This document shows, one piece after another, positions 16,812 through 49,937 of a DNA stretch of 64,000 nucleotides (the first letter of the stretch is position 1; each line of letters begins with the position of its first letter). Source of the DNA: Candidatus Uhrbacteria bacterium (lineage in GTDB: Bacteria; Patescibacteriota; Patescibacteriia; UBA9934); the NCBI GenBank assembly GCA_963822405.1, contig CAWGHH010000001.1:227717-291716 (forward strand), in the 5' to 3' direction. Made by a program: the position numbers and the translations under genes. The notes beneath the pieces are model-generated. The model worked only from the letters and a program-made list of their open reading frames with translations, made no database searches and was not told the DNA's origin.

Positions 16812-19800
16812 GTGTCACAAAAGCTGAACACATCTTTGAAGTATTTATCCCGACTGACTGTCGGCATGTTGCTTTTATGGGTCATGATCATGCCAAAGGT
16901 CTCTCATGCTTTGGAGATTCCACTGCCTCCAGTTGTGAATACTGGATTAACGCAGGAAGCGGCAAATAGTATTAGTAATGCCGCGGGAGCTGTTCAGGCA
17001 CCCTCACCAATGGTGGTGACTGTAGGTGCAGATGTTCCTTCAACTCTGAAGGGTATTTTAGATTCCGTAAAAGAATACGCCAAAAGTTCGTTGACGGGAG
17101 CTATTGCGACATATCTTGTAAATCTTACTACTTTTGCGGCGGATGAAGCCGCGCGTGAGGCCGCGGTGCGTTTGGTGAACTCGGGTCCGGGCGGAACTCC
17201 GCTTGTTGATCAACATCCTTGGGATAGCTATCTGAAGGATGTGGGTGCAGCTTCTGCTGGGGAGGCGCTTGGTTTATTGAATGATGAGATTACTGGGCCT
17301 GGTAAGGTTCTTCAGAACTTTAATTTATGTGCTCCTGGTAATGCAAACGTGCTTCTGTCATTCAAATTTGGCATCAAATCTGTTTTTCAAAAGCAAACGC
17401 CAAAGTGTAAAGTTAACGAAGTTGTTTCAAATTGGAAGGGTTTTATTGCAGATGTTTCTACCCAGGTCGGTGGCGGTCAGGCACGCAATCAGCACATCTT
17501 GACGCAATTAGCCGATGCTTTTGACCCTAACACCAACGAATTCTCCGTCGGCGTATCGCTAACTTCGAATATTTTAAACAACTCACAGGAAAAGGCGACG
17601 CTTAAGGTTGAGCAGCGTTTGAGTCAAAATGGCTTTCAAGATGTCACTGATTTCATCTCTGGTCAGGTTAAGACCCCGGCGAGCATGATTGTTAATGATT
17701 ATCAGCAGAAATTTAACAAACAAGGTGAAACGCGAAATCAGCTAAGTACTGCATTGCTTTCTAATACTGATGTTCTTCTGCAGATTGGTTTGCATGCAGG
17801 TAGTGTATTCACGAACACATTGCTTTCCAAACTAACGGAGAAAATTTACAACGGGTGGTTTGACGTCAATCCTGCGTTACAAAATACGAATCCATTTGAT
17901 CCGAGTTCATTTGCGCAAAATAATTCCGATGTCGCAACGGCTCGTTTGCGATCTATTTTTACGGCCACGCCACTCGAAATCACAAATTATAGCATTTTAT
18001 CGGATTTTAGTTCTTGTCCCCAATCAAATCGGGGGATATATAACTGTGTTGCCGATAGTTCTCTTATTTCTGCTATTGCGCGGGCATCTTCTGGCGTGGC
18101 GGTAACCGTGCAAGAGGCGATGGATCAGGGTTTATTGAAGCCTGATTGGCCTCTCATTCCTAGTTCTGATCATGCTCGTAACCAGGATCCATTCTGTTAT
18201 ACATATGGATATTGTTACGCGAACCTAGTGAAGCTTCGTAAGGCACGCGTTGTTTCAGTTGGTTGGGAATTTGCCGCGGACTCAGAGTTTAACTCGTCTA
18301 CCAATCCAACTACCTTACGCAAAGTTGTAGCTGGATTCAACGATTGTGACGCCTCGGGACAGCCGGATACTAACCATCCGTGGTGCAAACTGATCGACCC
18401 TACTTGGGTGTTGAAATATCCACAGACTCAATGTCGTGCAGCTGTTAATGGTCAGCTTTTGACATCTGGTGCCGCGGATGAACGTCAAACAGAGTGCGTA
18501 GACATGCCTAGTTGTATTGCGGAAGATGAGAATGGGAATTGTACTGGGGGATACGGATATTGTGTGAAAGAGAAGAACGCTTGGCAGTTCAGGGGACAGA
18601 GCTGTCCTGCGCAGTTTGCGTCGTGTATTACGGTGAAGAATTCAGAGAAAACGGTTTCGTACTTAAGAAATACGACTGATCCAGGCCCATGTACAGAAGA
18701 TAACGCTGGTTGTCAGTGGTATGCCACACAGAAGACTAAGCAGACGGATGGTTCGTTTAAATTCCCAGCTACAAATGTTCTAGCGGATGATGTTGCAACT
18801 GACACTTATAAGAATAGAACATACTTTACTAGCAGCGTTGAAGCTTGTCAGGCTGAAAATGGGGGATGTAAGGAGCTTGTTGTGCGTGACGCCACCTTGA
18901 GTTTGAACATGCTAGTGAACCCAAACCTGGAAGATGATACAGATAATAACGCCAAGCCGGATGGTTGGATTTTTAGCGCGCCTTCTAGCTCAACATTAGA
19001 TACGGCAAGTGCGTTTAGCAGGTCAGGAAGTAAAGCTGTGAAGACTGGAACGGGAATTGTTTATGAGCCTGGAGTGGAGTTTTCTCAGGGACGTTTTTAC
19101 ACTATGTCATTTTATGCTCGGCAGACTGTTGCCGGCGGATCTGATATTGGTGACATGTTTATTGGCTTTAGCGCTGATGACGGTTCGGGTATTAATCTTG
19201 GTGGCACCAGCATAATGGCCGGTGCAAATTCGGCTTGTGTACTTAAGGATGGAAATAATGATGGAAAAATGGATGCAGTTGATGTAACCGGTAAGCCTAC
19301 TGGCACTGTGTACGAGCGTTTCTCTTGTACATTTACTTCGCCTATTCAAGCAAACTCGGCAGCTAGGTTGTTTGCCTTTGTTGACCTGATGCCTGGTAAC
19401 GCTTGGATTGATGATGTTCAAGTAGAGCAGGGGCCGAAGGTTACTAATTTCCACAGTGGCTATTCGTCGACCACGCTCGCAAAAGAAGTCGTGAAGGTTC
19501 CGCCGTCATATCTTGGTTGTACTGGCGCGTCGACTGATCCGGCAGAGTGCGCAAAATATGCCAAGGTTTGTTCTGAAAATGATAACGGCTGTAGCGCGTA
19601 TACGCCTGCAAATGGAGACCCCGTCGTTACAGGAGTTGTTGACCTCGGGCTTCCGCTCCCTATTGTTGATGGACAAGACGAATGTCCGGCCGCTTGTGTT
19701 GGCTACGATACTTATAGACAAGAAGGTTTCGACATGGCAAAGAATTCAGGATCACGATTTGAGCCAGATGGTGTTTTTCCGCTTTATTTAATTCCAAGCA

Positions 19801-22800
19801 CCGCCAAGACTTGTCGGGATCAAGACGTTGGTTGTGATGAGTTCACGAATCTTTCGGACGAGAGCAAATCGTACTTTACTTATGTCCGAGCCTGCGTGAC
19901 CCCAGCTCAAGCTGAGGCAAACACCGGTTCTGACAACTCGGCCACTTTCTATACATGGGAAGGCTCTGATAATTCCGGTTACCAGTTGAAGACCTGGGAT
20001 TTATTACAGTCGAATTTGGGCTTGTCGACGTATACCTATCAGAACTCGCTTGGAATCGACACCGCTCCAGGTAACGCCCCATGTGAGCACGGAGTAGCTA
20101 CGCCAAATGGCATGACTTGTGCTGATGCTGTTGATTCTAACGGTGACCAGAAATATGACTGGGATACGGCTAGTTGCGATGAACACTCTGACATTTTCTC
20201 GAATTCTGATTGTCGGGAATTCTATGACGCTAACGGCGTAATTCACTATCGTTTGTGGTCAAACACGGTGACTGTAGATGCGGCCTGTTCTACATATAGA
20301 AAGACAGACGTAGTTGGCGCCGATCTAACGGAGAAGCAGGCCACCTGTACAAGTTCGGGCGGTTTCTTTGATGTTCAAGCTGGTACTTGTAGATATTACG
20401 GGCTGGCTACTGGCAGCAAGACTTGTTCAGCGGCGGCTAACGGTTGTCGTTCCTACACTGGAGGCAGAAGCCGAAACAGTTTTGTGGCGTATCAAGATTT
20501 GGTCGAGGACGGAAATCTGACTAAGTGGACTTCGGCTGTGCCGGCATCGCTCGTTTACAGTAACGAGTCACTGGCAACTGGCGGTCATTCTATTTCCACC
20601 AGTGCTCCTTTTGCTACATTGTCGAGCTCACTTACAGGCAAGCTACCTGCCAGCCGAACTTACACCTTGTCGTTCTTAGCTAAGGGAACCGGCACGCTCC
20701 AGGCTGGATTTGATTATCAAGCAGCTGTCGCTTCACCTACGATCGACTTAGCCTTTGGTTCGGTCACTGTTTCTCAGGGTTGGCAGCAGTATTCGCTTGG
20801 CCCACTAGACATGAGCAGTGTCTCAGCTATCTTTGGTAACGGGACGGCGCTCGCTTTTGTCCCGGCTGGTAACGTATTCGTTGATAATATTATTCTTCGA
20901 GCCGGCCAAGATAACATTACGCTCATCAAGAATTCATGGTCTACGCCAGCTGCTTGTGATCTGACGCCAACCGGCGCGCCAGCTCCGCAGTATTACTTGG
21001 GTTGTCAGCAATATTCTACGCAGACCGGTACTAAAGTTAACGTGAAGAGCTTTAGCAAGCTTTGCTCTGCAGATAAAGTTGGTTGCGCTAGCTTCTTCAT
21101 GACCGAGGAGAGTGCCTCGCCTCATGCTGAGGTTCATAACGCCACTTGTGGAACTATTGGCGGAGCAATTGCTACCGTTTCTACGGCTTGTCATTACGGT
21201 GTAAATGCTACTGCGTATGACATTACTACTCCGCTTCTTTGTACCATTGGTGTCGGCTCGAACAGCTGTCCATTTAATTTGAACTGGTATGTTGCCCCGG
21301 CTAATTTGCCAGCCCATCTAAAATACGCGCCGTCTACGGTCATAACGCCAGCCGATAAAGACGTGTTCCTGGTGGTGACAGATGACAAGAAGTGCGCCTC
21401 TGACGCTGCTGGTTGTACGGAATACGGTAAGCCAACTTACAATCAAGCTCGAACTGCTACAACCGGCGCGACGAGCAAGTTCTTGAAGAATAATCCGGCT
21501 AAGTATGTAGCATCTGGAGCGGATAAATCGATTCTTTGTTCGCAAAACGCGCTTTACTGTTCTGCTTGGACGGGAACTGGTGGCACGCAGTATTACTTTA
21601 AGGATCCAATCAATCAGACTTGTGAGTACAAGACAAACGTTAGCGTTGGCACTGTTTCCTACAGCGGTTGGTTCAAGACGGGCACCTCGGAACTTTGTTA
21701 CAACACTCCAAACTACGTCATTGGCGGAAACATGAGTGGTATTTGGAAGAATGGTGATGCGAACTATGCTGGCTGGGTTGGTACTTGTTCTACTCAGTAC
21801 AACTCCTGTTCCGAGTACCAGGATCCACTCGCCATCAAGACGAATGAAATCTACGGTAACTCTGATGGCACGCCGTATTTCACTCTTTCAACGTCACTTG
21901 GTTCTTCACGTTCGTCCGTTACTGGTACAGATTGTAACGGCAAAGTTTCATTAAAAGGCGGTTGCGCTCTGTTTAATGACACTTCCGTTTCTAGAAAGAC
22001 GGCTAACGCGTCAGCTACTGAAATGGCTTCTCGCCATGCTGATAAGTTATTTAACACTGAGCCTTATTCATTAGTCGATCCAATCGACTGTGACAGTAAC
22101 GCCACCGTCATTCACACACCTTCCAGTGGCGACGTTGATCTTTGTGCAAAACGGTGTGCCTATAGAGAGGGAAGTGTAAAAGACCTTACCAAGCCTGATA
22201 GCAATACTCCTATTTACGGATCTTCTTGTTACACCTCTGAGGACTGTGCGCCAGTTGATAGTGAATATGGCGAACGCGTGAAGGCCACAGGTTGTGACGC
22301 TGCAACTGCTGCTTTGCGTCTAAAAGATGACGCTAACACTGTTTTGGCCGTAAACCGAAACCGTGAATGTTCAGAATGGCTGTCTTGCGCTAACGCTCAA
22401 ACCGTTTGGGATGACGCTTCTAGCAGCTACAAGACAATCTGTGATCAGGTAGCTCTCTGTACGGAATATTCCGCTCAGGGTAGCTCCTCTTTCTGTTCAA
22501 AATGGAACTTTGATGCGCCAAAAGTAGTTCTTACTAATGACCGTTACACTTCTCGTGATGTCAGCTGGTACGGCAGTGAATACTCCGGAATGTCTATTCC
22601 TAATCTCTTCTCCGTCGAGGCCTTAGAGCAAGCAAACGTAGCGCCCAAGTTTACTTGTGATCTTTCCAAGCTACAAGATGGAGGTTCTGACAACGTAGAT
22701 CTTGCATATTTCAATGCAAACAACGGCAAATGGTGCTCTCTTGATGCGGAGTGCGGCACGGGTGCAAAATTCGTTGGTACATGTTCCGGCCCACAGGGCA

Positions 22801-25703
22801 ATGACGTTCGCCTAATATTGAACGCTGGAACATGTACTCAGGCGTACGGTCAGGCTTGCGCGGTAGGTACATGTGCGAATACCGGTGCGGCTTGTGCTAG
22901 ACAGGATCAATGCGGCACTACCGGTGGTGCCTGTGTAGTTGGCCAGTGTTATGCGCCTTCCTTAATAGTTCAGTCTTGCTTTAGTGACTCAGATTGTGGC
23001 GGCGGAGGTAAGGTTTGTTTGGGCAGCGTTTGTGCCTCAAAAGGAAATGTAGTGGTTACAGATACCCCAGCTTCAGGTCAAAGCTTATACAAACCAACGG
23101 AGGTTAATAAAGGTTGTGGTACTACGAATAAGTTTGTCAAATCAATCAATCTCAAGGACGGCACCTGTGTAAATGAAAAGTGTTTGCTAGCCCCAGACGG
23201 AAATGCCTTTGCTTTTGGAACTACAGAGGGAAAATCTTGCAAGGCATATCCAGAAACTACCAGCCCATTCTCGTCGGAAGTTGTTACGAACTGGTTTGAT
23301 ACCCTCGAGCAAAAGGTGTTAGTGGCGGATGTGCCAACATATGACGACATTCCTTACCAAAAGAGGTATGGATTTGAGCAGGCGAATACTTGTGCTCCGG
23401 GACAGGATTGTGTCTGCAGCTACAAGAAGGTGACATATTCTCAAGTTACGGGTGCACGGTATTTTGGTAAAACAACTGCAATAAATGGTCGTGGAATTTG
23501 TAGTTCTGGTCCTTATGTTAATAAATCATGTGACACCTATCTAGATTGTTCTAATACCACAGCGCTTGGAGAATGTTCGAAGCCTACTCGCGAAGACATT
23601 CTTCTTGGTATGGACGGTTATTGTTTGGAGCGTGATACGTCTATTAATGTGAACGGTGATCGTAATCAAAGTGCATGTATCAATTGGCTTCCTGTTGACC
23701 AGTTAGCCGGTAGCTCTGACCTTTATGGGAAGAGTACGGAGGCGGGATACTTTAAGGATACATGGGCTTGTGCTGAAACGGATATGTATGCGCAGTTGGC
23801 GCCAAGTCAGGTGCAGGCTACCGCTACTTCTGGTTGGAATGGTTTAACTACAATTGCTTGTGCCGTGTCTAATAATGGAATAATGAGTGCAGAAAAGTCA
23901 TTCGACGCTACTACCGTAAGTAGCTGTCTTAAGAACGCTACATGTCCGGCCGGGTACTGGGCATTGATCGGGCAACCGCACTGGATTGATAGGGGAAATA
24001 ATGGACATATTGCCGACGCATGCAACGTAGGAAACAATGATTGTCCATACGAATGTATTCCTATTGGATCATTTGTTGGAACGCAGTCCTGCGATATCAC
24101 TGGATCGTTCACTACCTCGCAGGCGGTTCCTATTTCGACGGCCAGAGAATCTACAAAACCGAATAACCGTATCGTAGGAATGGATCCTGGCACTGACAAG
24201 GTGGATACCGGTTTATCAAATTTTGATAAATTAGCAAAAGCCCTGTCTCTTTGTCGCACTCCTGCCGTGCTTTGGGATGACTCGATGCCAACCTTGCTCC
24301 ACACGATCTCTACGCCACCCGATCTGTCAAAATATTACAATCTAACCTTCACTCAGAAAAATCCTGACCCAGACGGCTACGAAATTATAGATGCTGTACG
24401 TTTCCCAGCTTGTAAGCAGGTGGTAAAAGTCAGTGACGGTAATATTTTTGCAGGTGCCGCTTGGACTGATCGTATGTTGAATCCGACTTCTGGTTTCGCG
24501 ATTGATAGTTCAGAGGGATCGGTGCGTTACACGTTGGATACTGCTAAACAGCCATATGGTCTTATTTTGGACGATGCGACCACACGTAAGGCACCTTTAT
24601 CTCCTTATGCGGTAGCGAGCTGTCAAAATAAGCAAACCGGGTCATTAATTTCAACGCCTTTGGGTACTGCGCCGTTTAATGTTTGCTATCCGTCAGGCCG
24701 ATGGATGCCGTATTCATCCGTTCCGGCAACTGATCCGGTTGCTCCAGAGGCTCGGTCATTTGTTGGGTTCGATATCAATACTAATGGTAACGGTTACGCT
24801 GGTCAGTGGCTTCCAAAGGGGACCTATTCGAATGCAGTAACGAATATTACACAACTATTCGCTAATCTGAATATTGGAGTCACTGGATCTTGGCGAAAGT
24901 GGACAAGCTGGGTTCCTTCGGGGTCTGTTAGTGGGGCAAACTTGAAGTATGAAACTGTATCTCCGCCAACGGCAGCTCTTGATGTCCGCGCCACGGAAGG
25001 CAATCCGCCAAAAATTTGGGCCATTGATCCGGCTACTTGTAACGGTTCTGAGTGTGAAGAGGGGCCATTAAATGCGATAACGGTTAATGACCAGAATACG
25101 GGGAATGTTTCTTCTTCAGACTTCCTCCGTGCCAGTGTAAAATTCTACGCGGCCGCAGATAAGAATCAGTTGCCATTGCGCCGTGTAATCATGGATTGGG
25201 GAGATGGTAACGAATCCGGTTCCGCCGCCGATGACAACTTCTATAAGAATCACCGCGGTCTTGAGCCAAACAGCACCGTCAGTAAGTGTGACGGCACCTC
25301 CGGCGAATGGGGTCTGACCGCAGAAAGCTGTGATCCAAATTACATCACCTACAGCCATATTTACACCTGTTCGTCTTCTACGCTTCTCAGCACACATGAT
25401 TGTACGGACACTAATAATGACGGCAAATTCGATAACGCGCCATGTATCAAAGAGCCCCGCACCATCGGCGCATCCTGCGTCTACCAGCCACGCGTGCATA
25501 CGAGAGATAATTGGGGGTGGTGTACGGGAGTTTGTACATTGGGAACTGATGGGAAGAGCGGATGTTATGCGGGAAATACCTATAGTGTGAATAGTGCTAA
25601 TGATGTAATAGATAGTGAGTGTTCGTACGGAATATATCCAGATCAAAATTCTACGAATGATCCATGGGTCTATTACAACGGACAGATAGTCGTGAAGCCA
25701 TAA
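16812..25703 (+). CDS. giant (2963 aa) secreted Cys-rich protein with C-terminal PKD domain
   Basis: GTG start. Signal peptide MSQKLNTSLKYLSRLTVGMLLLWVMIMPKVSHA; composition rich in T/S/G/N/D/C; recurring C-x(3-4)-[ND]-G-C-x-x-[YF] modules (CSENDNGCSAY, CRDQDVGCDEF, CASDAAGCTEY, CSAAANGCRSY); PKD-type motif MDWGDGNESGS...ITYSHIYTC near the C-terminus. Confidence 0.7.
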   Translation: MSQKLNTSLKYLSRLTVGMLLLWVMIMPKVSHALEIPLPPVVNTGLTQEAANSISNAAGAVQAPSPMVVTVGADVPSTLKGILDSVKEYAKSSLTGAIATYLVNLTTFAADEAAREAAVRLVNSGPGGTPLVDQHPWDSYLKDVGAASAGEALGLLNDEITGPGKVLQNFNLCAPGNANVLLSFKFGIKSVFQKQTPKCKVNEVVSNWKGFIADVSTQVGGGQARNQHILTQLADAFDPNTNEFSVGVSLTSNILNNSQEKATLKVEQRLSQNGFQDVTDFISGQVKTPASMIVNDYQQKFNKQGETRNQLSTALLSNTDVLLQIGLHAGSVFTNTLLSKLTEKIYNGWFDVNPALQNTNPFDPSSFAQNNSDVATARLRSIFTATPLEITNYSILSDFSSCPQSNRGIYNCVADSSLISAIARASSGVAVTVQEAMDQGLLKPDWPLIPSSDHARNQDPFCYTYGYCYANLVKLRKARVVSVGWEFAADSEFNSSTNPTTLRKVVAGFNDCDASGQPDTNHPWCKLIDPTWVLKYPQTQCRAAVNGQLLTSGAADERQTECVDMPSCIAEDENGNCTGGYGYCVKEKNAWQFRGQSCPAQFASCITVKNSEKTVSYLRNTTDPGPCTEDNAGCQWYATQKTKQTDGSFKFPATNVLADDVATDTYKNRTYFTSSVEACQAENGGCKELVVRDATLSLNMLVNPNLEDDTDNNAKPDGWIFSAPSSSTLDTASAFSRSGSKAVKTGTGIVYEPGVEFSQGRFYTMSFYARQTVAGGSDIGDMFIGFSADDGSGINLGGTSIMAGANSACVLKDGNNDGKMDAVDVTGKPTGTVYERFSCTFTSPIQANSAARLFAFVDLMPGNAWIDDVQVEQGPKVTNFHSGYSSTTLAKEVVKVPPSYLGCTGASTDPAECAKYAKVCSENDNGCSAYTPANGDPVVTGVVDLGLPLPIVDGQDECPAACVGYDTYRQEGFDMAKNSGSRFEPDGVFPLYLIPSTAKTCRDQDVGCDEFTNLSDESKSYFTYVRACVTPAQAEANTGSDNSATFYTWEGSDNSGYQLKTWDLLQSNLGLSTYTYQNSLGIDTAPGNAPCEHGVATPNGMTCADAVDSNGDQKYDWDTASCDEHSDIFSNSDCREFYDANGVIHYRLWSNTVTVDAACSTYRKTDVVGADLTEKQATCTSSGGFFDVQAGTCRYYGLATGSKTCSAAANGCRSYTGGRSRNSFVAYQDLVEDGNLTKWTSAVPASLVYSNESLATGGHSISTSAPFATLSSSLTGKLPASRTYTLSFLAKGTGTLQAGFDYQAAVASPTIDLAFGSVTVSQGWQQYSLGPLDMSSVSAIFGNGTALAFVPAGNVFVDNIILRAGQDNITLIKNSWSTPAACDLTPTGAPAPQYYLGCQQYSTQTGTKVNVKSFSKLCSADKVGCASFFMTEESASPHAEVHNATCGTIGGAIATVSTACHYGVNATAYDITTPLLCTIGVGSNSCPFNLNWYVAPANLPAHLKYAPSTVITPADKDVFLVVTDDKKCASDAAGCTEYGKPTYNQARTATTGATSKFLKNNPAKYVASGADKSILCSQNALYCSAWTGTGGTQYYFKDPINQTCEYKTNVSVGTVSYSGWFKTGTSELCYNTPNYVIGGNMSGIWKNGDANYAGWVGTCSTQYNSCSEYQDPLAIKTNEIYGNSDGTPYFTLSTSLGSSRSSVTGTDCNGKVSLKGGCALFNDTSVSRKTANASATEMASRHADKLFNTEPYSLVDPIDCDSNATVIHTPSSGDVDLCAKRCAYREGSVKDLTKPDSNTPIYGSSCYTSEDCAPVDSEYGERVKATGCDAATAALRLKDDANTVLAVNRNRECSEWLSCANAQTVWDDASSSYKTICDQVALCTEYSAQGSSSFCSKWNFDAPKVVLTNDRYTSRDVSWYGSEYSGMSIPNLFSVEALEQANVAPKFTCDLSKLQDGGSDNVDLAYFNANNGKWCSLDAECGTGAKFVGTCSGPQGNDVRLILNAGTCTQAYGQACAVGTCANTGAACARQDQCGTTGGACVVGQCYAPSLIVQSCFSDSDCGGGGKVCLGSVCASKGNVVVTDTPASGQSLYKPTEVNKGCGTTNKFVKSINLKDGTCVNEKCLLAPDGNAFAFGTTEGKSCKAYPETTSPFSSEVVTNWFDTLEQKVLVADVPTYDDIPYQKRYGFEQANTCAPGQDCVCSYKKVTYSQVTGARYFGKTTAINGRGICSSGPYVNKSCDTYLDCSNTTALGECSKPTREDILLGMDGYCLERDTSINVNGDRNQSACINWLPVDQLAGSSDLYGKSTEAGYFKDTWACAETDMYAQLAPSQVQATATSGWNGLTTIACAVSNNGIMSAEKSFDATTVSSCLKNATCPAGYWALIGQPHWIDRGNNGHIADACNVGNNDCPYECIPIGSFVGTQSCDITGSFTTSQAVPISTARESTKPNNRIVGMDPGTDKVDTGLSNFDKLAKALSLCRTPAVLWDDSMPTLLHTISTPPDLSKYYNLTFTQKNPDPDGYEIIDAVRFPACKQVVKVSDGNIFAGAAWTDRMLNPTSGFAIDSSEGSVRYTLDTAKQPYGLILDDATTRKAPLSPYAVASCQNKQTGSLISTPLGTAPFNVCYPSGRWMPYSSVPATDPVAPEARSFVGFDINTNGNGYAGQWLPKGTYSNAVTNITQLFANLNIGVTGSWRKWTSWVPSGSVSGANLKYETVSPPTAALDVRATEGNPPKIWAIDPATCNGSECEEGPLNAITVNDQNTGNVSSSDFLRASVKFYAAADKNQLPLRRVIMDWGDGNESGSAADDNFYKNHRGLEPNSTVSKCDGTSGEWGLTAESCDPNYITYSHIYTCSSSTLLSTHDCTDTNNDGKFDNAPCIKEPRTIGASCVYQPRVHTRDNWGWCTGVCTLGTDGKSGCYAGNTYSVNSANDVIDSECSYGIYPDQNSTNDPWVYYNGQIVVKP

Positions 25704-25713
25704 GAAAAAAATC

Positions 25714-25770
25714 GAGCCCCGTGGTGATGGGTTTGGCACCGCCAAACCCTTACGTCACGGGGCTTTTGCG
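25714..25770 (+). terminator. nested hairpin/terminator after the giant gene
   Basis: GAGCCCCGTG ... CACGGGGCT followed by TTTTG; the inner palindrome GGGTTTGGCaccGCCAAACCC occupies 25729-25749. Confidence 0.45.
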
Positions 25771-26490
25771 TTACGTGATATTTGGATGGGGATTGGGATT
25801 ATTCCGGTCACGTTCCCATTTGGCGGGGTTTTCGCGGATGTATTCCTGGATTCGTTTTAAATCACTCTTTCCTCTGATAATATGTTCGTAATAATCCCGT
25901 TGCCATAATTTTCCGATTCTTCCAACCTTTCCGAATCGATGACCTTTGGCGTATTCATTATAAAATGCGTTCGTGGTCATCGTCTTGAACCATTGGACGA
26001 AATCCGGAATTCCTTTAAACGCGCTCGCGTCCTCTCCATAACCGGCCGTCCCGGCCGCCGTTGGGGTCGACCCATGCGTCGACCCTTTCCCATCCTCCGA
26101 ACCGTTTTCGGATTTTAACGTCGACCTCTTTTCATTTCTTACCCGCGAAACGATTTCTATAATCCCGTGAAAATGATTGGGCATGGTTACGAATTCATGG
26201 ATACGAATTCCCGGAAATTTCTCCGGTAATTTATTCCAAAATTTATCCACGATCATTCCGTATTCATTTAATTCCATTATCGAAGGTGGATTTGTGCGAG
26301 GGTCGACGCATGGGTCGACCCCAACCTCGCGGATCACGCCGAACCATTCGATTCGGTCTTCGGTGACGGGATTAATAAAATAATATCCGGGTTGGGAGTA
26401 ATCGTATCCCTTTAAACGTAATTCCTTCCTACCGATTTCTTTCCATGAAAACATAAAACCCCATTTGTTTGGCCGATATGCGTCGGTCAT
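25771..26490 (-). CDS. IS200/IS605 family Y1 (HUH) transposase, RAYT-like
   Basis: HUH motif MPNHFHGIIEI and a C-terminal LWQRDYYEHIIR catalytic Tyr region. An insertion-like Gly/Ser-rich segment is present, and a 23-bp inverted repeat pair lies inside the coding sequence. Confidence 0.7.
   Translation of the reverse strand: MTDAYRPNKWGFMFSWKEIGRKELRLKGYDYSQPGYYFINPVTEDRIEWFGVIREVGVDPCVDPRTNPPSIMELNEYGMIVDKFWNKLPEKFPGIRIHEFVTMPNHFHGIIEIVSRVRNEKRSTLKSENGSEDGKGSTHGSTPTAAGTAGYGEDASAFKGIPDFVQWFKTMTTNAFYNEYAKGHRFGKVGRIGKLWQRDYYEHIIRGKSDLKRIQEYIRENPAKWERDRNNPNPHPNIT
26060..26082 (+). repeat. 23-bp palindromic repeat GGGGTCGACCCATGCGTCGACCC (left copy) inside the transposase gene
   Basis: The exact reverse complement is present at 26300-26322; each copy contains the self-complementary GGGTCGACCC. 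Confidence 0.55.
26300..26322 (+). repeat. 23-bp palindromic repeat (right copy, inverted)
   Basis: GGGTCGACGCATGGGTCGACCCC, the reverse complement of 26060-26082; the pair brackets the HUH core of the transposase ORF. Confidence 0.55.
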
Positions 26491-26633
26491 TTACGCCTGG
26501 GGAGTTATCTATATTGCACCATGGATTTTCCTGTGTTGTACGTGCCGTGTGGATATATAAGAAAACCCCGCCATCTCTCCAGAGGGCGGGGCTTGCGTCA
26601 AGCGTGAACTGACGTTCAGTCCTGATTTCCGTT

Positions 26634-27428
26634 TCAGTACTGCCAGTCACACTGGACGTCGGCGACGTATTGGTACGGGCTGTTGTCAACAACCGTCACC
26701 GAGAAACTTTTTCCGAGCACGACCACCGTATTTTCCAGGTAATAGGGGGCGGGTGGGTTACTAGTCTCAGAGGCCTCAACCCCGTTCACCAGAAGAACAA
26801 TTTGATCGTTTTTCAATTGCATTTCATCGCCAGCATGTCCGACGACGCTCATGTTCGGATTATCCTGCGGATGGATTTTTCCATCCTGATCGATCTTGAT
26901 TACCTGATTATCGAGATCGTGATGACCAAAGGATTCACCTTTGTGGCCATCCGCTGACGTGCTGTACCGCCACTTGTCGTACCCGCACGCGTACGTGCCG
27001 GGTTCGATGGTCTTGTGGAGATCGATGCGGACGGGGGCGGGGACGTTCAGCTGAACGGAGAAGTCCACGGGCATGGCGGCCCAGGGGTTTCCTTCGCCGT
27101 CCATGTACACGGGGTAGCCGAACTGGCCGGCTAGCGTCGGATCTCCCGCTTCCGCCGTGTAGTCGCCGGGGGCGTCCACGGGCTGCGTGTCACCGCTCGT
27201 CAGGGAGTAGTCCTTCGTCGGACCATAGAGGTACACGAGGGCATCGTCCGTGACGGAGGTGAGCTTGAAGACGTCCACGGTCACGGGCGCGAAGCCGGTG
27301 ACGGAAGTGTCTCCAGTGTCGCTCGTGTCGCAGGTCTGGCAGGAGTCCGTATCGGTCTCCTGACAGTCTTTGCACGGGTGGCAGGCGGTGAGGAGGGCGA
27401 GGATGCTGATGAAAGGAACGATGCGCAT
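26634..27428 (-). CDS. hypothetical lipoprotein (GC-rich)
   Basis: Lipobox ILALLTAC, then a Cys/Asp/Thr-rich linker (CKDCQETDTDSCQTCDTSDTGDT) and a beta-rich domain. A terminator hairpin lies at 26566-26600 on the coding strand. Confidence 0.5.
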   Translation of the reverse strand: MRIVPFISILALLTACHPCKDCQETDTDSCQTCDTSDTGDTSVTGFAPVTVDVFKLTSVTDDALVYLYGPTKDYSLTSGDTQPVDAPGDYTAEAGDPTLAGQFGYPVYMDGEGNPWAAMPVDFSVQLNVPAPVRIDLHKTIEPGTYACGYDKWRYSTSADGHKGESFGHHDLDNQVIKIDQDGKIHPQDNPNMSVVGHAGDEMQLKNDQIVLLVNGVEASETSNPPAPYYLENTVVVLGKSFSVTVVDNSPYQYVADVQCDWQY

Positions 27429-39212: not shown

Positions 39213-40859
39213 ATGGCTATTGCTGACCTGCTCAAAATTCCACCGGTCCGTTCCTTTCTGTTGGGAGGCAAGAGCCTTGCTGAATTTAGGGTTGTCGCTA
39301 AAAACAATGATTTACCAGTTGAGCGCGCAGTTGAATTCCTTGATTTGTGTAATGCAGTAATTGATGGGGCGTTGCCAATGGCGGAGGTGCCGGGGATTAT
39401 TGCGCAGGCGTTTGGGAAGGATGAGGAGACGGCTAAAAAGATTTCGGCGGATATTTTTGGGTATCGAATTTTGCCACTTGAACCGTTTATTCCTGGGATT
39501 GGTGCGCAGATCACGGCTTGGGGCGGAAAATTGGAAGACTATCCAGCTAGACCGATTAGCAAAGAGCAAATTACCGCCTTTTCATGGGCGCAGAGGATGA
39601 ATGAGCTTGCTAATCTTGGATTTTCAGATGTGCTTGTGAAGCGTTTAGCCTTACTTCTTGATGGTCGAATTAGAGGCGAGAAAAATGCTGAAGCACTAAG
39701 AACATTTTTCGGTAGGCCGTTGACTATTGGTGGTTTAGCTTTATTGAAGGAAAAAGTTGAAGCTTTGTTGGCAGAAGTAGAGCGTGAGGCACCGTATATT
39801 GAAACAGTATCTGAAGAAGAATGGCAGAAGATAGAAATTGCAAAGGCTGAGGCGGAGGCTGCGGAAGAGGTGGAGGAATCGGCGGAGGGGTTTGGCGACG
39901 CCAAACCCGTACAACAGGAGGTGGCATTGTCGCAGGCTATAGAAATCGCCCCGCCAAAAGAATTAGCAGCAGAGGTGCCGTCAACGGTTGGTTTTGTGCC
40001 GGATAATTTAAAAGAAGTTGTTGATGAAGCTATAGATGCAGTAAAAGAAATACTTTTAGCAGAGAATATTTCTTTGGATAAATTCCGGTCACTAGCTCAG
40101 ATGAATATTAGAGGTGTTCGCGAACCAGGCCAGACGCGGGATATTCTTGAGAAAGAATACAAGTTAGCTGGCGCTGATTTGCGTGTAGTGTTGGATGCGC
40201 TAGCCGCCGGCAAGAAGAGATTTGATTTGGCGAAGGGGTTTGGCGGCGCCAAACCCGTACATAGCGAGGTGCCCGAAGGGCATAATCAGAATGAGTCCAA
40301 GGAATCGAGTGCCCTCGACCAAAAATTTGCGCAACTCACTAAGACCTTGCCGGAAGAATCCATTGAACCAATCATGCCGGGGTCAAGAGTATCGGCGGCG
40401 CGGGACACTCAATCACCCTCGACCAAGAAAATCATTCCTCTTAAGCCTAGGCCAGCCAAGGCTGAGTTAACTGTTGGTAGCGTTGCTCCAGGGGCTGTTG
40501 ATCGAAAGATGACTGACATAGTTCAGGCCTCGCGTTTAATGGGGCCAGTTGATCAGATTCAGAGCTTGTCGACAACTGAGTTTAGGCGCATGTCCAGTGA
40601 TCCCGCTGAGGCTGCGCGGAAAGTGGAAGATTTAATTATTGCGCTGTTAGCTACTGGCTATGAAGAGCGAGTGAGCGGTATTAATGCTTGGCGTAAGAGT
40701 CCTTTGAACCAGATGTATCTAGAGATTTCTGAAGAAGCACTAGGTGCCGGCATGACCATTCCGGATATTTGCAGCAAGCGCCGTAAAGAAAAAAGAGACT
40801 GTTTGAGCCCGGCGGAAATTAAAGCGATTATTGGACTTAATGCCAAGCTGAGATTTTAA
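39213..40859 (+). CDS. hypothetical acidic soluble protein (T4SS-cluster associated)
   Basis: 548 aa, no TM helices. Contains an internal ~44-bp direct repeat, each copy holding the GGGTTTGGCGnCGCCAAACCC palindrome (encoding GFGDAKPV and GFGGAKPV). Confidence 0.4.
   Translation: MAIADLLKIPPVRSFLLGGKSLAEFRVVAKNNDLPVERAVEFLDLCNAVIDGALPMAEVPGIIAQAFGKDEETAKKISADIFGYRILPLEPFIPGIGAQITAWGGKLEDYPARPISKEQITAFSWAQRMNELANLGFSDVLVKRLALLLDGRIRGEKNAEALRTFFGRPLTIGGLALLKEKVEALLAEVEREAPYIETVSEEEWQKIEIAKAEAEAAEEVEESAEGFGDAKPVQQEVALSQAIEIAPPKELAAEVPSTVGFVPDNLKEVVDEAIDAVKEILLAENISLDKFRSLAQMNIRGVREPGQTRDILEKEYKLAGADLRVVLDALAAGKKRFDLAKGFGGAKPVHSEVPEGHNQNESKESSALDQKFAQLTKTLPEESIEPIMPGSRVSAARDTQSPSTKKIIPLKPRPAKAELTVGSVAPGAVDRKMTDIVQASRLMGPVDQIQSLSTTEFRRMSSDPAEAARKVEDLIIALLATGYEERVSGINAWRKSPLNQMYLEISEEALGAGMTIPDICSKRRKEKRDCLSPAEIKAIIGLNAKLRF
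39888..39908 (+). repeat. palindrome GGGTTTGGCGaCGCCAAACCC (in frame inside CDS)
   Basis: Perfect 10-bp arms; the same core is found at 25729-25749 and 40236-40256. Confidence 0.5.
40236..40256 (+). repeat. palindrome GGGTTTGGCGgCGCCAAACCC (in frame inside CDS)
   Basis: Second intragenic copy, 348 bp downstream of the first. Confidence 0.5.
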
Positions 40860-48176: not shown

Positions 48177-49937
48177 TTAACTCTTGCTCTCTCTGTGTAG
48201 TAACATGTCGATCGCTTCTTTGAGCGATCCCGCTGGGATAATTTCTCCTCCGTTTACAAAGAATATTTCGTCGGCATTCTCGATCGTGTTGAGTCGATGG
48301 GCGATGATGATGCGCGTGGTTTCTTTCGGGAGTGCGTTTAATGCTTCGCCGAGTAGTTGCTCGGTGACGGTGTCGATGTTCGCGGTGGCCTCGTCGAGGA
48401 TCAAGAGTTCTGGTTCACGCAAGATGGCGCGCATGAAGGCTAGGATTTGTTTTTGACCGGCTGAAAGTGAGCCGCCAGTGTTGCCGATTTCGGTTTGCAG
48501 ACCCTTATCGAACCGCGCCACAAGTTTTGTGAGATCCATTTTCTCGAGCTGTGTTGTTAGCTCTTCGTCAGATACATCTGCCAGCTTTTCGTTTCCGTAA
48601 ATAATGTTGTCGCGCACTGTTCCATGAAAGAGGAACGGATCCTGAAGAATGAAGCCAATTTTTTGCGTGCGTTCGGCGCTAGAGTAAGAGCGAATGTCAC
48701 GGCCGTTAAGTAAAACCGTTCCCGATGTCGGGTCATATAAACGCGCCGCGAGTGACGCGGTTGTGGTCTTGCCACCGCCCGTTGGACCAACTAACGCGTA
48801 GGTTTTGCCGGTGTTGAATATGAGGTTTACATTGTGGAGTACGGATTTGCCATCGGGATAGCTGAATTGTACGTCCCTGAATTCGAGCATTGCGGCTTGG
48901 TGTAGGGGCAAGGCGCCGCCTTGCCCGTACGCCGAGGCCGCAATCACGCCCATATCTGATGACAATCCCATGATGTTCTCAATCCTGTCACCGGCGGCCA
49001 GTGCGCCTTGGAAGGACGCCCAGAATGACGCGATTTGGCGCACGGGGTCATAAAAGCGCGAGATATAGCTGAGCGAACTGACGAGGAGTCCAATGGTCAG
49101 TTGGCCGGACATAATGAGCGAGATGCCGTACGTGATAGCAATAAGCTGCGCGGCATTTCCCATGAGGCTGTAAATTGGGGAGAAGACGGTGTTCGCAATG
49201 CCTGCGCCAACAGCCGCGCCATAGTTTTTAGTATTCGCCTCGGCTAAATGTTTGCGGAAATAATCCTGGCGGTTAAAGGCGACCACAACTTTGAAGTTTT
49301 CTAGGCTTTCTTGAACCGCGCCACTGAACGCGCCGGTCATTTGCATGCTTTTCGCGTTCTGCTTCTTGATGATGCCAGAAGTTACCTGCGTAATAATTAG
49401 TAGGGCGAGGGCAGGAATAAGCGTAGCTACGCCAAGTTTCGTGTTAATCGACACGAGCGAGATAGCTGCGCCAATAATCATGAAACCGTTGCCCACAAAT
49501 TGCATGACGGCTTGAGAGAAAAATTGGTTCAGTTTGTCCGTGTCGTTGTTGATGCGTGAGATGAGATCACCGGCTTTATTCTGGTTGAAGAACGCCACTG
49601 GGAGTTCTTCCAGCTTGCCGAAGATCGCATTGCGCAATCGGAAGAGTACACGTTGTCCAACGGCGCCCATGGTGGTGGTCTGCACATAACCGGCAACGAA
49701 CGCTCCGAGGTAGATGAGGGTGAGTTGTAGGGCGACAACGTTTAGACCAGCAAGGTCATGGTGAATGATGTGCGTATCGATAGCATGCCCAATGAGCACC
49801 GGTGCTAAAAGATTTAAGCCGGAGTTCAATAGAATGGCGACGAGCGCAATGAACATTGGGAGCTTTTCGTCCTTGATAAACGGCCAGAAGAACCGGAGTT
49901 TGGCTTTGCTCGGAGTAGTATTAAGACTGTAGTTCAT
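48177..49937 (-). CDS. ABC exporter, fused permease/ATP-binding protein (type I exporter half-transporter)
   Basis: 6-TM N-domain; Walker A GPTGGGKTT, signature LSAGQKQILAFMRA, Walker B LILDEATANID. Confidence 0.85.
   Translation of the reverse strand: MNYSLNTTPSKAKLRFFWPFIKDEKLPMFIALVAILLNSGLNLLAPVLIGHAIDTHIIHHDLAGLNVVALQLTLIYLGAFVAGYVQTTTMGAVGQRVLFRLRNAIFGKLEELPVAFFNQNKAGDLISRINNDTDKLNQFFSQAVMQFVGNGFMIIGAAISLVSINTKLGVATLIPALALLIITQVTSGIIKKQNAKSMQMTGAFSGAVQESLENFKVVVAFNRQDYFRKHLAEANTKNYGAAVGAGIANTVFSPIYSLMGNAAQLIAITYGISLIMSGQLTIGLLVSSLSYISRFYDPVRQIASFWASFQGALAAGDRIENIMGLSSDMGVIAASAYGQGGALPLHQAAMLEFRDVQFSYPDGKSVLHNVNLIFNTGKTYALVGPTGGGKTTTASLAARLYDPTSGTVLLNGRDIRSYSSAERTQKIGFILQDPFLFHGTVRDNIIYGNEKLADVSDEELTTQLEKMDLTKLVARFDKGLQTEIGNTGGSLSAGQKQILAFMRAILREPELLILDEATANIDTVTEQLLGEALNALPKETTRIIIAHRLNTIENADEIFFVNGGEIIPAGSLKEAIDMLLHRESKS

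Follow-up and report, generated by a model that had tools for sequence, protein, structure and literature searches.

REPs (repetitive extragenic palindromes) are the single-stranded-DNA hairpin substrates of RAYT, also termed TnpA_REP. Binding and cutting of GTAG-hairpins on single-stranded DNA have been biochemically shown only for the TnpA_REP of E. coli. RAYT genes are recognised by two inverted REPs flanking the gene and by the motif NP(L/V)(R/K)xG adjoining the tyrosine (Nunvar 2010), as well as by a single-copy, vertically inherited and housekeeping-like distribution (Bertels 2017, PMC5581495). A different arrangement characterises subclass 2.4 of Quentin, Siguier, Chandler & Fichant (BMC Genomics 19:475, 2018; PMC6006769), which is Group 4 of Bertels et al. 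2017. Here the REPs lie inside tnpA_REP, as a rule between HuH and Y, and leave the reading frame intact, which is described as a 'remarkable and unique feature'. These in-frame REPs make up a hypervariable insertion that follows beta3 (the HUH strand) and precedes alphaC, and the median distance from HuH to Y is 88 aa, as against 58–67 aa. The REPs themselves are either canonical and long, with a stem foot of three G-C pairs, or of a 'double-foot' type (PMC6006769). Nested REPs are not mentioned by Di Nocera et al. 2013 (PMC3733652), Bertels 2017, Corneloup 2021 or Nunvar 2010; the first of these describes REPs within uvrA, dnaE and other genes as well as REPs overlapping the ends of RAYT genes, and does not list REPs inside RAYT open reading frames (ORFs).

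The gene studied here is located at 25771..26490 on the minus strand of the window, the 64-kb stretch of DNA that was analysed, in which it is present in one copy. The ORF list gives it 239 aa, but the true start is probably M13 (ATG at 26454-26452; MFSWKE...), with a product of 227 aa; the orthologs all start with MFSWKE or MLSWKE, directly after GGGG(T/A)TTTTATG. Its description in the initial annotation as a RAYT-like Y1/HUH transposase is borne out by Pfam, NCBIfam and alignment evidence. The Pfam model PF01797 (Y1_Tnp; gathering cutoff 23) scores 29.5 bits with the native protein and 38.4 bits when the REP-encoded inserts are removed. The top NCBIfam model is REP_Tyr_transpos (NF047646; 48.2 bits native, 60.6 bits without inserts), with both scores below its equivalog cutoff of 80 bits, while the NCBIfam IS200 model (NF033573) reaches 17.6-25.5 bits against a cutoff of 55. 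All of the top 30 Foldseek matches are Y1 transposases (ISDra2, IS608, IS200 or TnpA_REP), and the only solved structure found by sequence is E. coli TnpA_REP (YafM, PDB 4ER8; E = 1.7e-4), the fold of which matches (Foldseek) and the HUH, WQxxxWEH and Y..NP motifs of which align, although sequence identity is only ~14 %. The HUH codons (H106-F-H108; HFH) occupy 26167-26175 on the minus strand. Together with Y217, N221, P222 and W225, H106 and H108 are invariant in the homolog alignment (A1). Y217 (QEYIRENPAKW; codon at 25840-25842, minus strand) aligns in the HMM alignment with the catalytic Tyr115 region (DYIYINPVK) of 4er8_A. The RAYT-specific motif is not matched here, as the window protein reads NPAKWE, in which NP.K is kept and the L/V and G are absent. 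The Y1/HUH fold is shared with the IS200/IS605 elements (TnpA_IS200) and, by analogy, recognition of single-stranded-DNA hairpins may be expected, but unlike these elements the gene is a single syntenic copy without tnpB and without LE/RE ends.

The initial annotation reported a 23-bp inverted repeat inside this coding sequence. The repeat is real and longer, comprising two fully complementary arms of 27 nt at 26060-26086 and 26299-26325, separated by a 212-nt spacer. The 23-mer GGGGTCGACCCATGCGTCGACCC had been placed at 26060-26082 and actually occupies 26063-26085 on the plus strand, while its exact reverse complement is found at 26300-26322, as reported. A match of this kind occurred in none of 100 dinucleotide shuffles. 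Both arms are in frame in the one minus-strand ORF, and each folds by itself into a DNA hairpin of 8 bp (-8.4 and -8.7 kcal/mol). At site 1 (26299..26325, minus strand), which encodes VGVDPCVDP ahead of the HUH motif, the REP reads from head to tail on the gene strand GTTG-GGGTCGAC-CCATGC-GTCGACCC-T; at site 2 (26060..26086, plus strand) the same 27-mer is inverted relative to the gene and encodes GSTHGSTPT. In an AF2 model, site 1 (residues 56-69) forms the turn between the strands at residues 51-55 and 70-74, while site 2 falls in the long disordered loop from the HUH strand to the QWFKTMTT helix (residues 114-160, between the strand at 106-113 and the helix at 161-183), where block-mean pLDDT is 38-49 over residues 121-150. 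The arms enclose the HUH codons, and Y217 lies outside them. They are built as GTAG-type REPs: the head is GTNG, the stem foot is formed by GGG...CCC and the centre is not complementary. The stem, GGGTCGAC paired with GTCGACCC, has three G-C pairs at its foot, as in the canonical REPs of subclass 2.4, whereas the head is GTTG rather than GT[AG]G; in the sister clade it is GTAG. No further copy of the 23-mer or of GGGTCGACCC is present within the 64-kb window.

The surroundings of the gene contain further palindromes. Other in-frame REPs of the window are found in an ABC transporter gene and a 548-aa ORF, and GTNN-headed hairpins number nine as against 1.2 in shuffles. A decayed third copy of the REP is located in the 5' leader (26467..26489, minus strand; gene sense TGACCGACGCATATCGGCCAAAC), within the spurious N-terminal extension. 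The orthologs L001, L004, L002 and L005 have an intact leader REP at exactly this place, bounded by CTCCCCA and AATGGGG(T/A)TTTATG, while L007 has none. The frame of a leader hairpin (26455..26504, minus strand) is kept in all six orthologous leaders; its TCCCCA (within 26498-26504, plus strand) may pair with the TGGGG Shine-Dalgarno region (26459-26463), which would place the leader REP in the loop. Directly 3' of the gene, a REP of a second family (25729..25753, minus strand; GTAA-GGGTTTGGC-GGT-GCCAAACCC), which folds at -10.1 kcal/mol, is inserted in the loop of a bidirectional terminator hairpin (~25711-25768) that is common to the gene and a convergent giant gene. At this position the orthologs have only a simple hairpin (TCGAGCC....GGCTCGA) without the second-family REP. 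On the other side, a GC hairpin followed by a T-run (26566..26592, minus strand) forms the terminator-like end of the upstream gene (26634..27428, minus strand); it is not a REP, having neither a GTNN head nor similarity to the REPs. The two GC-rich hairpins between which the initial annotation placed the gene exist, but from their positions and T-runs they are read as ordinary terminators of the neighbouring genes rather than as cognate REPs. A simple terminator and promoter scan did not call them, their loops exceeding the limits of the scan, and over 25500-26800 Rfam matched only a plant miRNA model, a meaningless long-hairpin hit with 28 bits where the gathering score is 230. A perfect inverted repeat of 13 nt, with one arm in the 3' part of the gene and the other in the upstream terminator, was also set aside, being specific to the window and absent in the orthologs. 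The cognate REP pair of this gene is inside the ORF rather than flanking it.

Five syntenic orthologs (44-69 % amino acid identity) carry a REP at the same two protein loops. All five are colinear with the window gene, and in all five contigs the gene is convergent with a large downstream gene, which is full-length (2975 aa) in L005 and L006 and truncated at the contig end elsewhere. This conserved neighbourhood argues for a stationary, vertically inherited gene, in line with the distribution that Bertels 2017 gives for RAYTs. The inverted repeat is maintained with differing sequences, pairing over 27/27 nt in the window, 25/25 in L001, 28/29 in L002 and 32/33 in L005, and the REP changes among orthologs are lineage-specific and compensatory. 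Between the two clades, REP nucleotides are 81 % identical, as compared with ~55 % for the rest of the gene and 21-50 % at four-fold third positions. One arm has decayed in L004 and L007, as has the leader copy in the window, with the ORF intact in each case.

Nested REPs are widespread in the family, with in-frame GTAG-headed hairpins found in 69/74 analysable metagenomic homologs (93 %). Using the WQRxYYEH motif, ~17 aa upstream of the catalytic Tyr, as the tyrosine landmark, 116 of 136 nested REP sites lie between it and the HUH motif, 17 before HUH and three after the landmark, and REP density is 2.56 per kb in the core as compared with 0.26 per kb outside. The disordered loop after the HUH strand is the hypervariable, REP-filled region across the whole family. 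Alignment of the homologs, which had been proposed for the Gly/Ser-rich segments, places the REP-encoded segments as in-frame insertions relative to many of them, and the site 1 REP is likewise an insertion, since most homologs in A1 are without it. The nested REPs are mostly outward-facing pairs with a median identity of 0.79, identical in only 3/43 pairs, so that what is conserved is the local hairpins as opposed to a long inverted repeat. The homologs also contain double-foot forms such as GTAGGGGCACGGCATGCCGTGCCCCTAC. The encoded peptides vary with REP family, orientation and frame (VGADLRVCP, VGATLVVAQ, GEHVGSPL, GQARGPAPT and others), yet the DNA of the REP segment is palindromic in every homolog. 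No homolog was seen to encode the same peptides from non-palindromic DNA, the observation which the initial annotation had named as speaking against its reading.

The REP palindrome of the window is dispersed in sister genomes. Its consensus is GTAGGGGTCGA(C/T)CCATG(T/C)(G/A)TCGACCC, and it is multi-copy in sister Patescibacteria MAGs, Gimesia, Thermomicrobiales and other genomes. When GTDB genomes were scanned with GGGTCGAYCCRTGYRTCGACCC, at least 126 matches were obtained at no fewer than 108 loci; almost all matches are preceded by GTAG or GTAC, and 6/126 are within RAYT-like ORFs. The sister genome SO_2017_GW1_41, which carries the ortholog P0006, has ~11-12 further dispersed matches, seen as singlets, all of which are of the GAT..ATC variant, as are its two intragenic arms. 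Several of these matches fall in frame within the genes of ParB, a PfkB kinase and a PPDK-like enzyme. The same REP DNA is also read in further frames (RRGRPMCRP, RVDTWVDPY) and is present outside genes as well. Their dispersed multi-copy relatives and REP anatomy confirm that the palindromes of the window are REP-like, as had been suspected.

Among the described systems, subclass 2.4 has the following in common with the locus: the Y1/HUH core, an enlarged and hypervariable REP-filled segment that joins the HUH strand to the next helix, REPs with a GT[AG]G foot and a stem base of three G-C pairs, the occurrence of double-foot palindromes in relatives, the lack of a C-terminal extension domain and a scattered occurrence across many phyla. 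In the window protein H108 and Y217 are 109 aa apart and the loop at residues 114-160 holds a REP. The locus departs from the published description in that one REP stands ahead of HUH, so that the pair brackets the HUH codons, in the perfect 27-nt complementarity of its two inverted arms, in their GTTG head and in its Patescibacteria-like host. The GTAG-headed hairpins are also the cognate repeats of the E. coli 'REPtron' (REP/BIME), but there they flank the gene, while here they are within the ORF and leader. As stop-free palindromes in gene linkers and loops, the REPs in the ABC transporter of the window and in the ParB, PfkB and PPDK-like genes of the sister genome are comparable to intragenic REPs and the Rickettsia palindromic elements (Di Nocera et al. 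2013, PMC3733652). Like the REPIN of Bertels & Rainey, in which an inverted REP doublet is the replicating unit, the pair is inverted and outward-facing. Dimorphic REPIN-like doublets are dispersed in the Patescibacteria MAG JBMNNJ01 and found inside most homologs, but between the two REPs of the window lie 212 nt of coding sequence that is essential, and nowhere among the sequences searched did this pair occur as a repeated unit. RPE-1 elements are longer, at roughly 100-150 bp, and the REPs of the window are unrelated to them in sequence.

Taken together, it is very likely that the gene is a single, stationary and vertically inherited ('domesticated') Y1/HUH nuclease gene of subclass 2.4 / Group 4, and that both palindromes are GTAG-type REP copies lying in frame in this RAYT-like gene, in two insertion-tolerant surface loops. 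By analogy with E. coli TnpA_REP, the enzyme, made beside its own gene, would bind and cut GTAG-hairpins on single-stranded DNA, and may thereby seed or convert REP copies in and around that gene. Only stop-free insertions with a length that is a multiple of three, in permissive loops, would survive purifying selection, and VGVDPCVDP and GSTHGSTPT would arise from the DNA palindrome as by-products. The arms could be kept identical to each other and to the REPs of the genome by ongoing turnover or gene conversion, which would explain the perfect 27-nt inverted repeat. What speaks against this reading is the lack of another copy of this REP in the 64-kb window, the GTTG head, the protein score below the NCBIfam RAYT cutoff, and the near-universal, intact nested REPs of a very old family, which accord less well with tolerated passengers than with a selected role. 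The intragenic changes in the one sister genome sampled match the dispersed variant of that genome, and comparison of the sequences provides evidence of concerted evolution between the intragenic REPs and the REP population of the genome as a whole, with the codons around them becoming saturated. The suggestion in the initial annotation that REP-like elements have invaded their own transposase is thus a supported one. Its implied novelty does not hold, since Quentin et al. 2018 (PMC6006769) had already described nested REPs; the presence of REPs inside their own transposase gene is supported by the sequence data as real, but it is typical of subclass 2.4.

The initial annotation also put forward hairpin-mediated excision or inversion of the core segment. 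A switch in which recombination or hairpin extrusion between the arms would invert or excise the HUH segment and turn the transposase on or off is highly improbable. Such a reading is suggested by the perfect 27-nt arms, which flank the HUH codons and are 212 nt apart, and single-stranded DNA or RNA of this region would fold as one long hairpin. However, an inverted spacer contains two stop codons, and the loss of 239 or 266 nt puts the gene out of frame, leaving no alternative product; the five orthologs and all 80 metagenomic homologs are colinear, with none inverted, and no invertase gene adjoins the locus. Furthermore, in most homologs both REPs come after the HUH motif, 2-171 nt apart, with nothing catalytic bracketed. 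It is hardly credible that the repeat reflects selection on the peptides, for example as Gly/Pro/Ser-rich linkers, or chance similarity. The peptides are indeed rich in Gly, Pro, Ser and Thr and located in loops, but the shuffled sequences gave no such match, the DNA remains palindromic where the peptides differ, and the same DNA is found outside genes and in other frames.

More weight attaches to the view, which we nevertheless regard as unlikely, that the nested REPs serve a function in the gene instead of being passengers. They might act as a master or seed copy by which enzyme and substrate are sure to be inherited together. Alternatively, they might regulate the gene in cis, either through binding by the enzyme or through mRNA hairpins or the long-range 27-bp duplex, which would restrict translation or recruit RNase III, with a genotoxic nuclease kept at a low level as the effect. 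Intact hairpins at the same loop in 93 % of homologs, despite protein identities of 30-40 %, are consistent with such a role, and their near-universal presence in a very old family would fit selection better than passenger status. No part of the gene is as conserved as the REP DNA, and the window arms agree even in their GTTG/CAAC head, which is synonymous and non-consensus. For the mRNA, a 27-bp duplex around the HUH region is predicted (MFE -123.9 kcal/mol, z = -5.3), and in four orthologs a REP occupies the loop of the potentially Shine-Dalgarno-sequestering leader hairpin. Against this stand the decay of one arm in L004 and L007 and of the leader copy in the window, in each case with an intact ORF. 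The paired REPs of the family are also mostly dimorphic and not mutually complementary, which rules out a long-range RNA helix as the conserved feature. Homogenisation with dispersed REPs, as in SO_2017_GW1_41, explains both conservation and perfection equally well. An extension of this view, namely that the nested REPs constitute a selected built-in copy of the substrate, a minimal 'REPtron-in-a-gene' that accompanies the gene in horizontal transfer and re-seeds REPs in a new host, and/or by whose DNA or RNA hairpins the nuclease senses or limits its expression, is similarly doubtful. If true, such hairpins would in the window lineage include the perfect 27-bp duplex around the HUH codons and the REP in the loop of the leader hairpin.

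With in-frame REP copies in two surface loops as the preferred reading, the advance over the published description of subclass 2.4 is modest, and consists of the Patescibacteria lineage, the REP ahead of HUH and the evidence for concerted evolution. Its main value concerns annotation, in that the Gly/Pro-rich peptides of metagenomic proteins annotated as RayT or transposase (VGVDPCVDP, GSTHGSTPT, VGADLRVCP, GEHxGSPL) are translated REP hairpins and not protein motifs. The syntenic orthologs provide a clean natural experiment on the evolution of intragenic as compared with genome-wide REPs, and whether the nested copies are passengers, or instead a master copy or autoregulator, is testable on a small and well-defined gene. 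The subclass 2.4 phenomenon is thereby extended to Patescibacteria-like genomes, in which the REPs are largely intragenic because intergenic space is scarce.

The RAYT-like ORF (25771..26490, minus strand; 239 aa) is the one minus-strand ORF of its region, and its product passes the Pfam Y1_Tnp cutoff (29.5 versus 23 bits). The best NCBIfam model is that of the REP-associated tyrosine transposases, with 48 bits, below the cutoff of 80; removal of the two inserts raises this score to 60.6 bits, covering almost the entire profile but still below the cutoff, and the IS200 model yields only 25.5 bits. The sole solved structure found by sequence is E. coli TnpA_REP (4ER8), and the AlphaFold model (mean pLDDT 73.8) matches exclusively Y1 transposases in the PDB. 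Of the 3557 homologs retrieved by database search, several carry the label 'REP element-mobilizing transposase RayT'; an Rfam search of the RAYT region gave nothing real. Since all orthologs begin with MFSWKE or MLSWKE, preceded by GGGG(T/A)TTTTATG, the true start of the window gene is probably the ATG at 26454, with the 239-aa call placed 12 codons too early; the resulting N-terminal extension (26455-26490) is a decayed REP.

The 23-bp inverted repeat reported within this gene in the initial annotation is real, with zero matches in 100 dinucleotide-preserving shuffles. Its second arm (26300-26322) is the exact reverse complement as described, but the first lies at 26063-26085 (plus strand) rather than 26060-26082, an offset of 3 nt. 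The perfect repeat extends to 27 nt, with arms at 26299-26325 (site 1) and 26060-26086 (site 2) separated by a 212 nt spacer. Each arm is an imperfect palindrome, GGGTCGAC-CCATGC-GTCGACCC, predicted to fold as single-stranded DNA into an 8-bp hairpin (-8.4 or -8.7 kcal/mol). As had been proposed, the arms are translated in frame as VGVDPCVDP (site 1) and GSTHGSTPT (site 2) and bracket the HUH codons (26167-26175); they do not enclose the codon of Y217 (25840-25842), the residue aligned with E. coli TnpA_REP's catalytic tyrosine. No further copies of the 23-mer or of GGGTCGACCC occur within the 64-kb window. A perfect 13-nt inverted repeat (25821-25833/26561-26573; TGGCGGGGTTTTC/GAAAACCCCGCCA), formed by the ENPAK codons of the RAYT gene and the upstream terminator stem, is absent from the orthologs and is therefore probably due to chance. 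In the AlphaFold model, site 1 forms a turn between strands 51-55 and 70-74, and site 2 a disordered loop (114-160). Alignment with homologs, as suggested in the initial annotation, showed that the site 1 peptide is missing from most of them, while site 2 falls in a hypervariable segment directly after the HUH strand. Throughout the family, VGADLRVCP-, GEHxGSPL- and GQxxGxAPT-type peptides occupy this segment; they are GC-rich palindromes translated in two orientations.

When GGGTCGAYCCRTGYRTCGACCC was searched against GTDB, with each species represented by one genome, at least 108 loci were identified. Among the matches listed, GTAG or GTAC precedes nearly all of the 126, with the consensus cGTAGGGGTCGACCCATGTGTCGACCCg. 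A GT[AG]G head followed by a palindrome is the defining build of REPs (Nunvar 2010; Di Nocera 2013) and, judged by their sequence, the window palindromes are REPs. Two Patescibacteria MAGs, several Gimesia genomes, one Thermomicrobiales MAG and others contain multiple copies among these listed matches, only 6/126 of which are located in RAYT-like ORFs. The MAG SO_2017_GW1_41, which encodes the ortholog P0006, accounts for about 11-12 further listed copies, all with the variant GTAGGGGTCGATCCATGTATCGACCCC found in both arms of its RAYT gene. This variant is lineage-specific, and several copies lie in frame in ParB, a PfkB kinase and a PPDK-like enzyme. Locus L036 (JBAZWW010000003.1, 119-3234) carries four copies of its lineage's REP in 3.2 kb, in one orientation, three of them in frame in one 620-aa surface-protein-like ORF.

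Among 80 homologous metagenomic loci, recognisable HUH and WQRxYYEH motifs were present in 74 genes, 69 of which contain in-frame GTAG-headed GC hairpins. The nested sites are located between the HUH and WQRxYYEH motifs (116 sites), before HUH (17) or after WQRxYYEH (3). GTAG-headed hairpins reach a density of 2.56 per kb within the gene core, compared with 0.26 per kb outside it. In the most frequent layout, a forward REP directly follows the HUH strand and a reverse REP lies 2-171 nt further on, their heads pointing outward; a lone 'double-foot' palindrome is the second most frequent layout. Paired REPs are mostly dimorphic (median identity 0.79; identical in just 3/43 pairs); conservation thus applies to the local hairpin rather than to a long inverted repeat. 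The outward-facing dimorphic doublet is also dispersed as a unit of about 110 bp in the Patescibacteria MAG JBMNNJ01 (L014, L026, L028, L029, L041, L042, L070, L082 and L111), and occurs at L061 (Desulfotomaculum UBA9916 MAG) and L101. It comprises two different outward REPs, GTAG-GGGTCGACC... and ...GGGCGGACACATGGGTCCGCCC-CTAC, and its AT-rich spacer and flanks are conserved. MAGs assigned to unrelated phyla carry near-identical copies, which could reflect horizontal transfer or binning error.

Nine GTNN-headed hairpins occur in the window, versus 1.2 in shuffles. A second REP-like family, GGGTTTGGCNNNGCCAAACCC, of the form GTA(A/C)-GGGTTTGGC-NNN-GCCAAACCC, has three window copies versus 0.01 expected: one (25729-25753) is inserted in the loop of the hairpin terminator that directly follows the RAYT gene on its 3' side, and two (39888-39912 and 40236-40260) lie in frame, as EGFGDAKPVQ and KGFGGAKPVH, in an ORF without a Pfam match (39213..40859; 548 aa). 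An ABC transporter (48177..49937, minus strand) carries a double-foot REP, GTAGGGGCAAGGCGCCGCCTTGCCCGTAC (48902-48930), in the linker that joins its membrane and ATPase domains, where it is translated in frame as YGQGGALPLH.

Five ortholog loci with DNA (44-69% identity) were compared. In 5/5 orthologs the RAYT gene and a large gene downstream of it are convergently oriented, and this conserved neighbour indicates a single gene that is stationary and inherited vertically rather than a hopping IS. L005/L006 contain the complete partner gene (2975 aa), which in the other ortholog loci is truncated where the contig ends; the window's partner gene (16812-25703) encodes a giant 2963-aa secreted-looking protein, and none of the REPs lie inside it. 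The sequences of these syntenic orthologs provide clear evidence for concerted evolution of the nested REPs. The inverted repeat matches at 27/27 nt in the window, 25/25 in L001, 28/29 in L002 and 32/33 in L005, with one arm decayed in L004 and in L007. Two ortholog clades differ in their palindromes (GAC..GTC versus GAT..ATC; ATGC versus ATGT; GTTG versus GTAG), with corresponding changes in the two halves of each arm. Between-clade identity is 81% for REP nucleotides, about 55% for the rest of the gene and 21-50% at four-fold third positions. An additional extragenic REP copy occurs in L004; the sequence of L017 is identical to this region, so the Gammaproteobacteria label of its assembly CAYGEQ01 (L017, L019 and L043) may be wrong, or the contig mis-binned.

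Hairpin-mediated excision or inversion of the core, as initially envisaged, is unsupported: inversion of the spacer creates two stop codons, excision removes 239 or 266 nt and shifts the frame, and the inverted state occurs in none of the orthologs or homologs. The mRNA is predicted to form the 27-bp duplex (z = -5.3), which may have an effect at the RNA level. Four orthologs carry a third REP copy in their 5' leader, flanked by CTCCCCA and a Shine-Dalgarno-like TGGGG, and L007 lacks it; in the window this copy (26467-26489) is decayed and absorbed into the over-long ORF call. In the conserved leader (window 26455-26504; L001 3725-3786; L004 9942-10003; also L002 and L005), TCCCCA is complementary to the TGGGG just ahead of the start codon, with the REP of the four orthologs in the loop of this pairing, which, by analogy with IS200, may exert translational control. 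A role for the nested REPs as master copy or autoregulator is considered improbable; the reading we favour, with good confidence and including assignment to a known class, is that they are passengers.

REPs within RAYT ORFs are not mentioned by Nunvar 2010, Di Nocera 2013, Bertels 2017 or Corneloup 2021. Quentin, Siguier, Chandler and Fichant 2018 (PMC6006769) describe them as a 'unique feature of subclass 2.4', which corresponds to Bertels' RAYT Group 4. The same paper reports REPs whose stem foot consists of three G-C pairs, as well as 'double foot' forms. The window gene displays each feature of this TnpA_REP subclass that could be checked. The initial suggestion, which placed REP-like elements within their own transposase, is correct, and this is already a published property of the class. 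What is added is incremental: a Patescibacteria-like host of subclass 2.4-type nested REPs, a REP ahead of the HUH motif, whereby the pair brackets it, the evidence for concerted evolution from syntenic orthologs, and a leader-hairpin REP.
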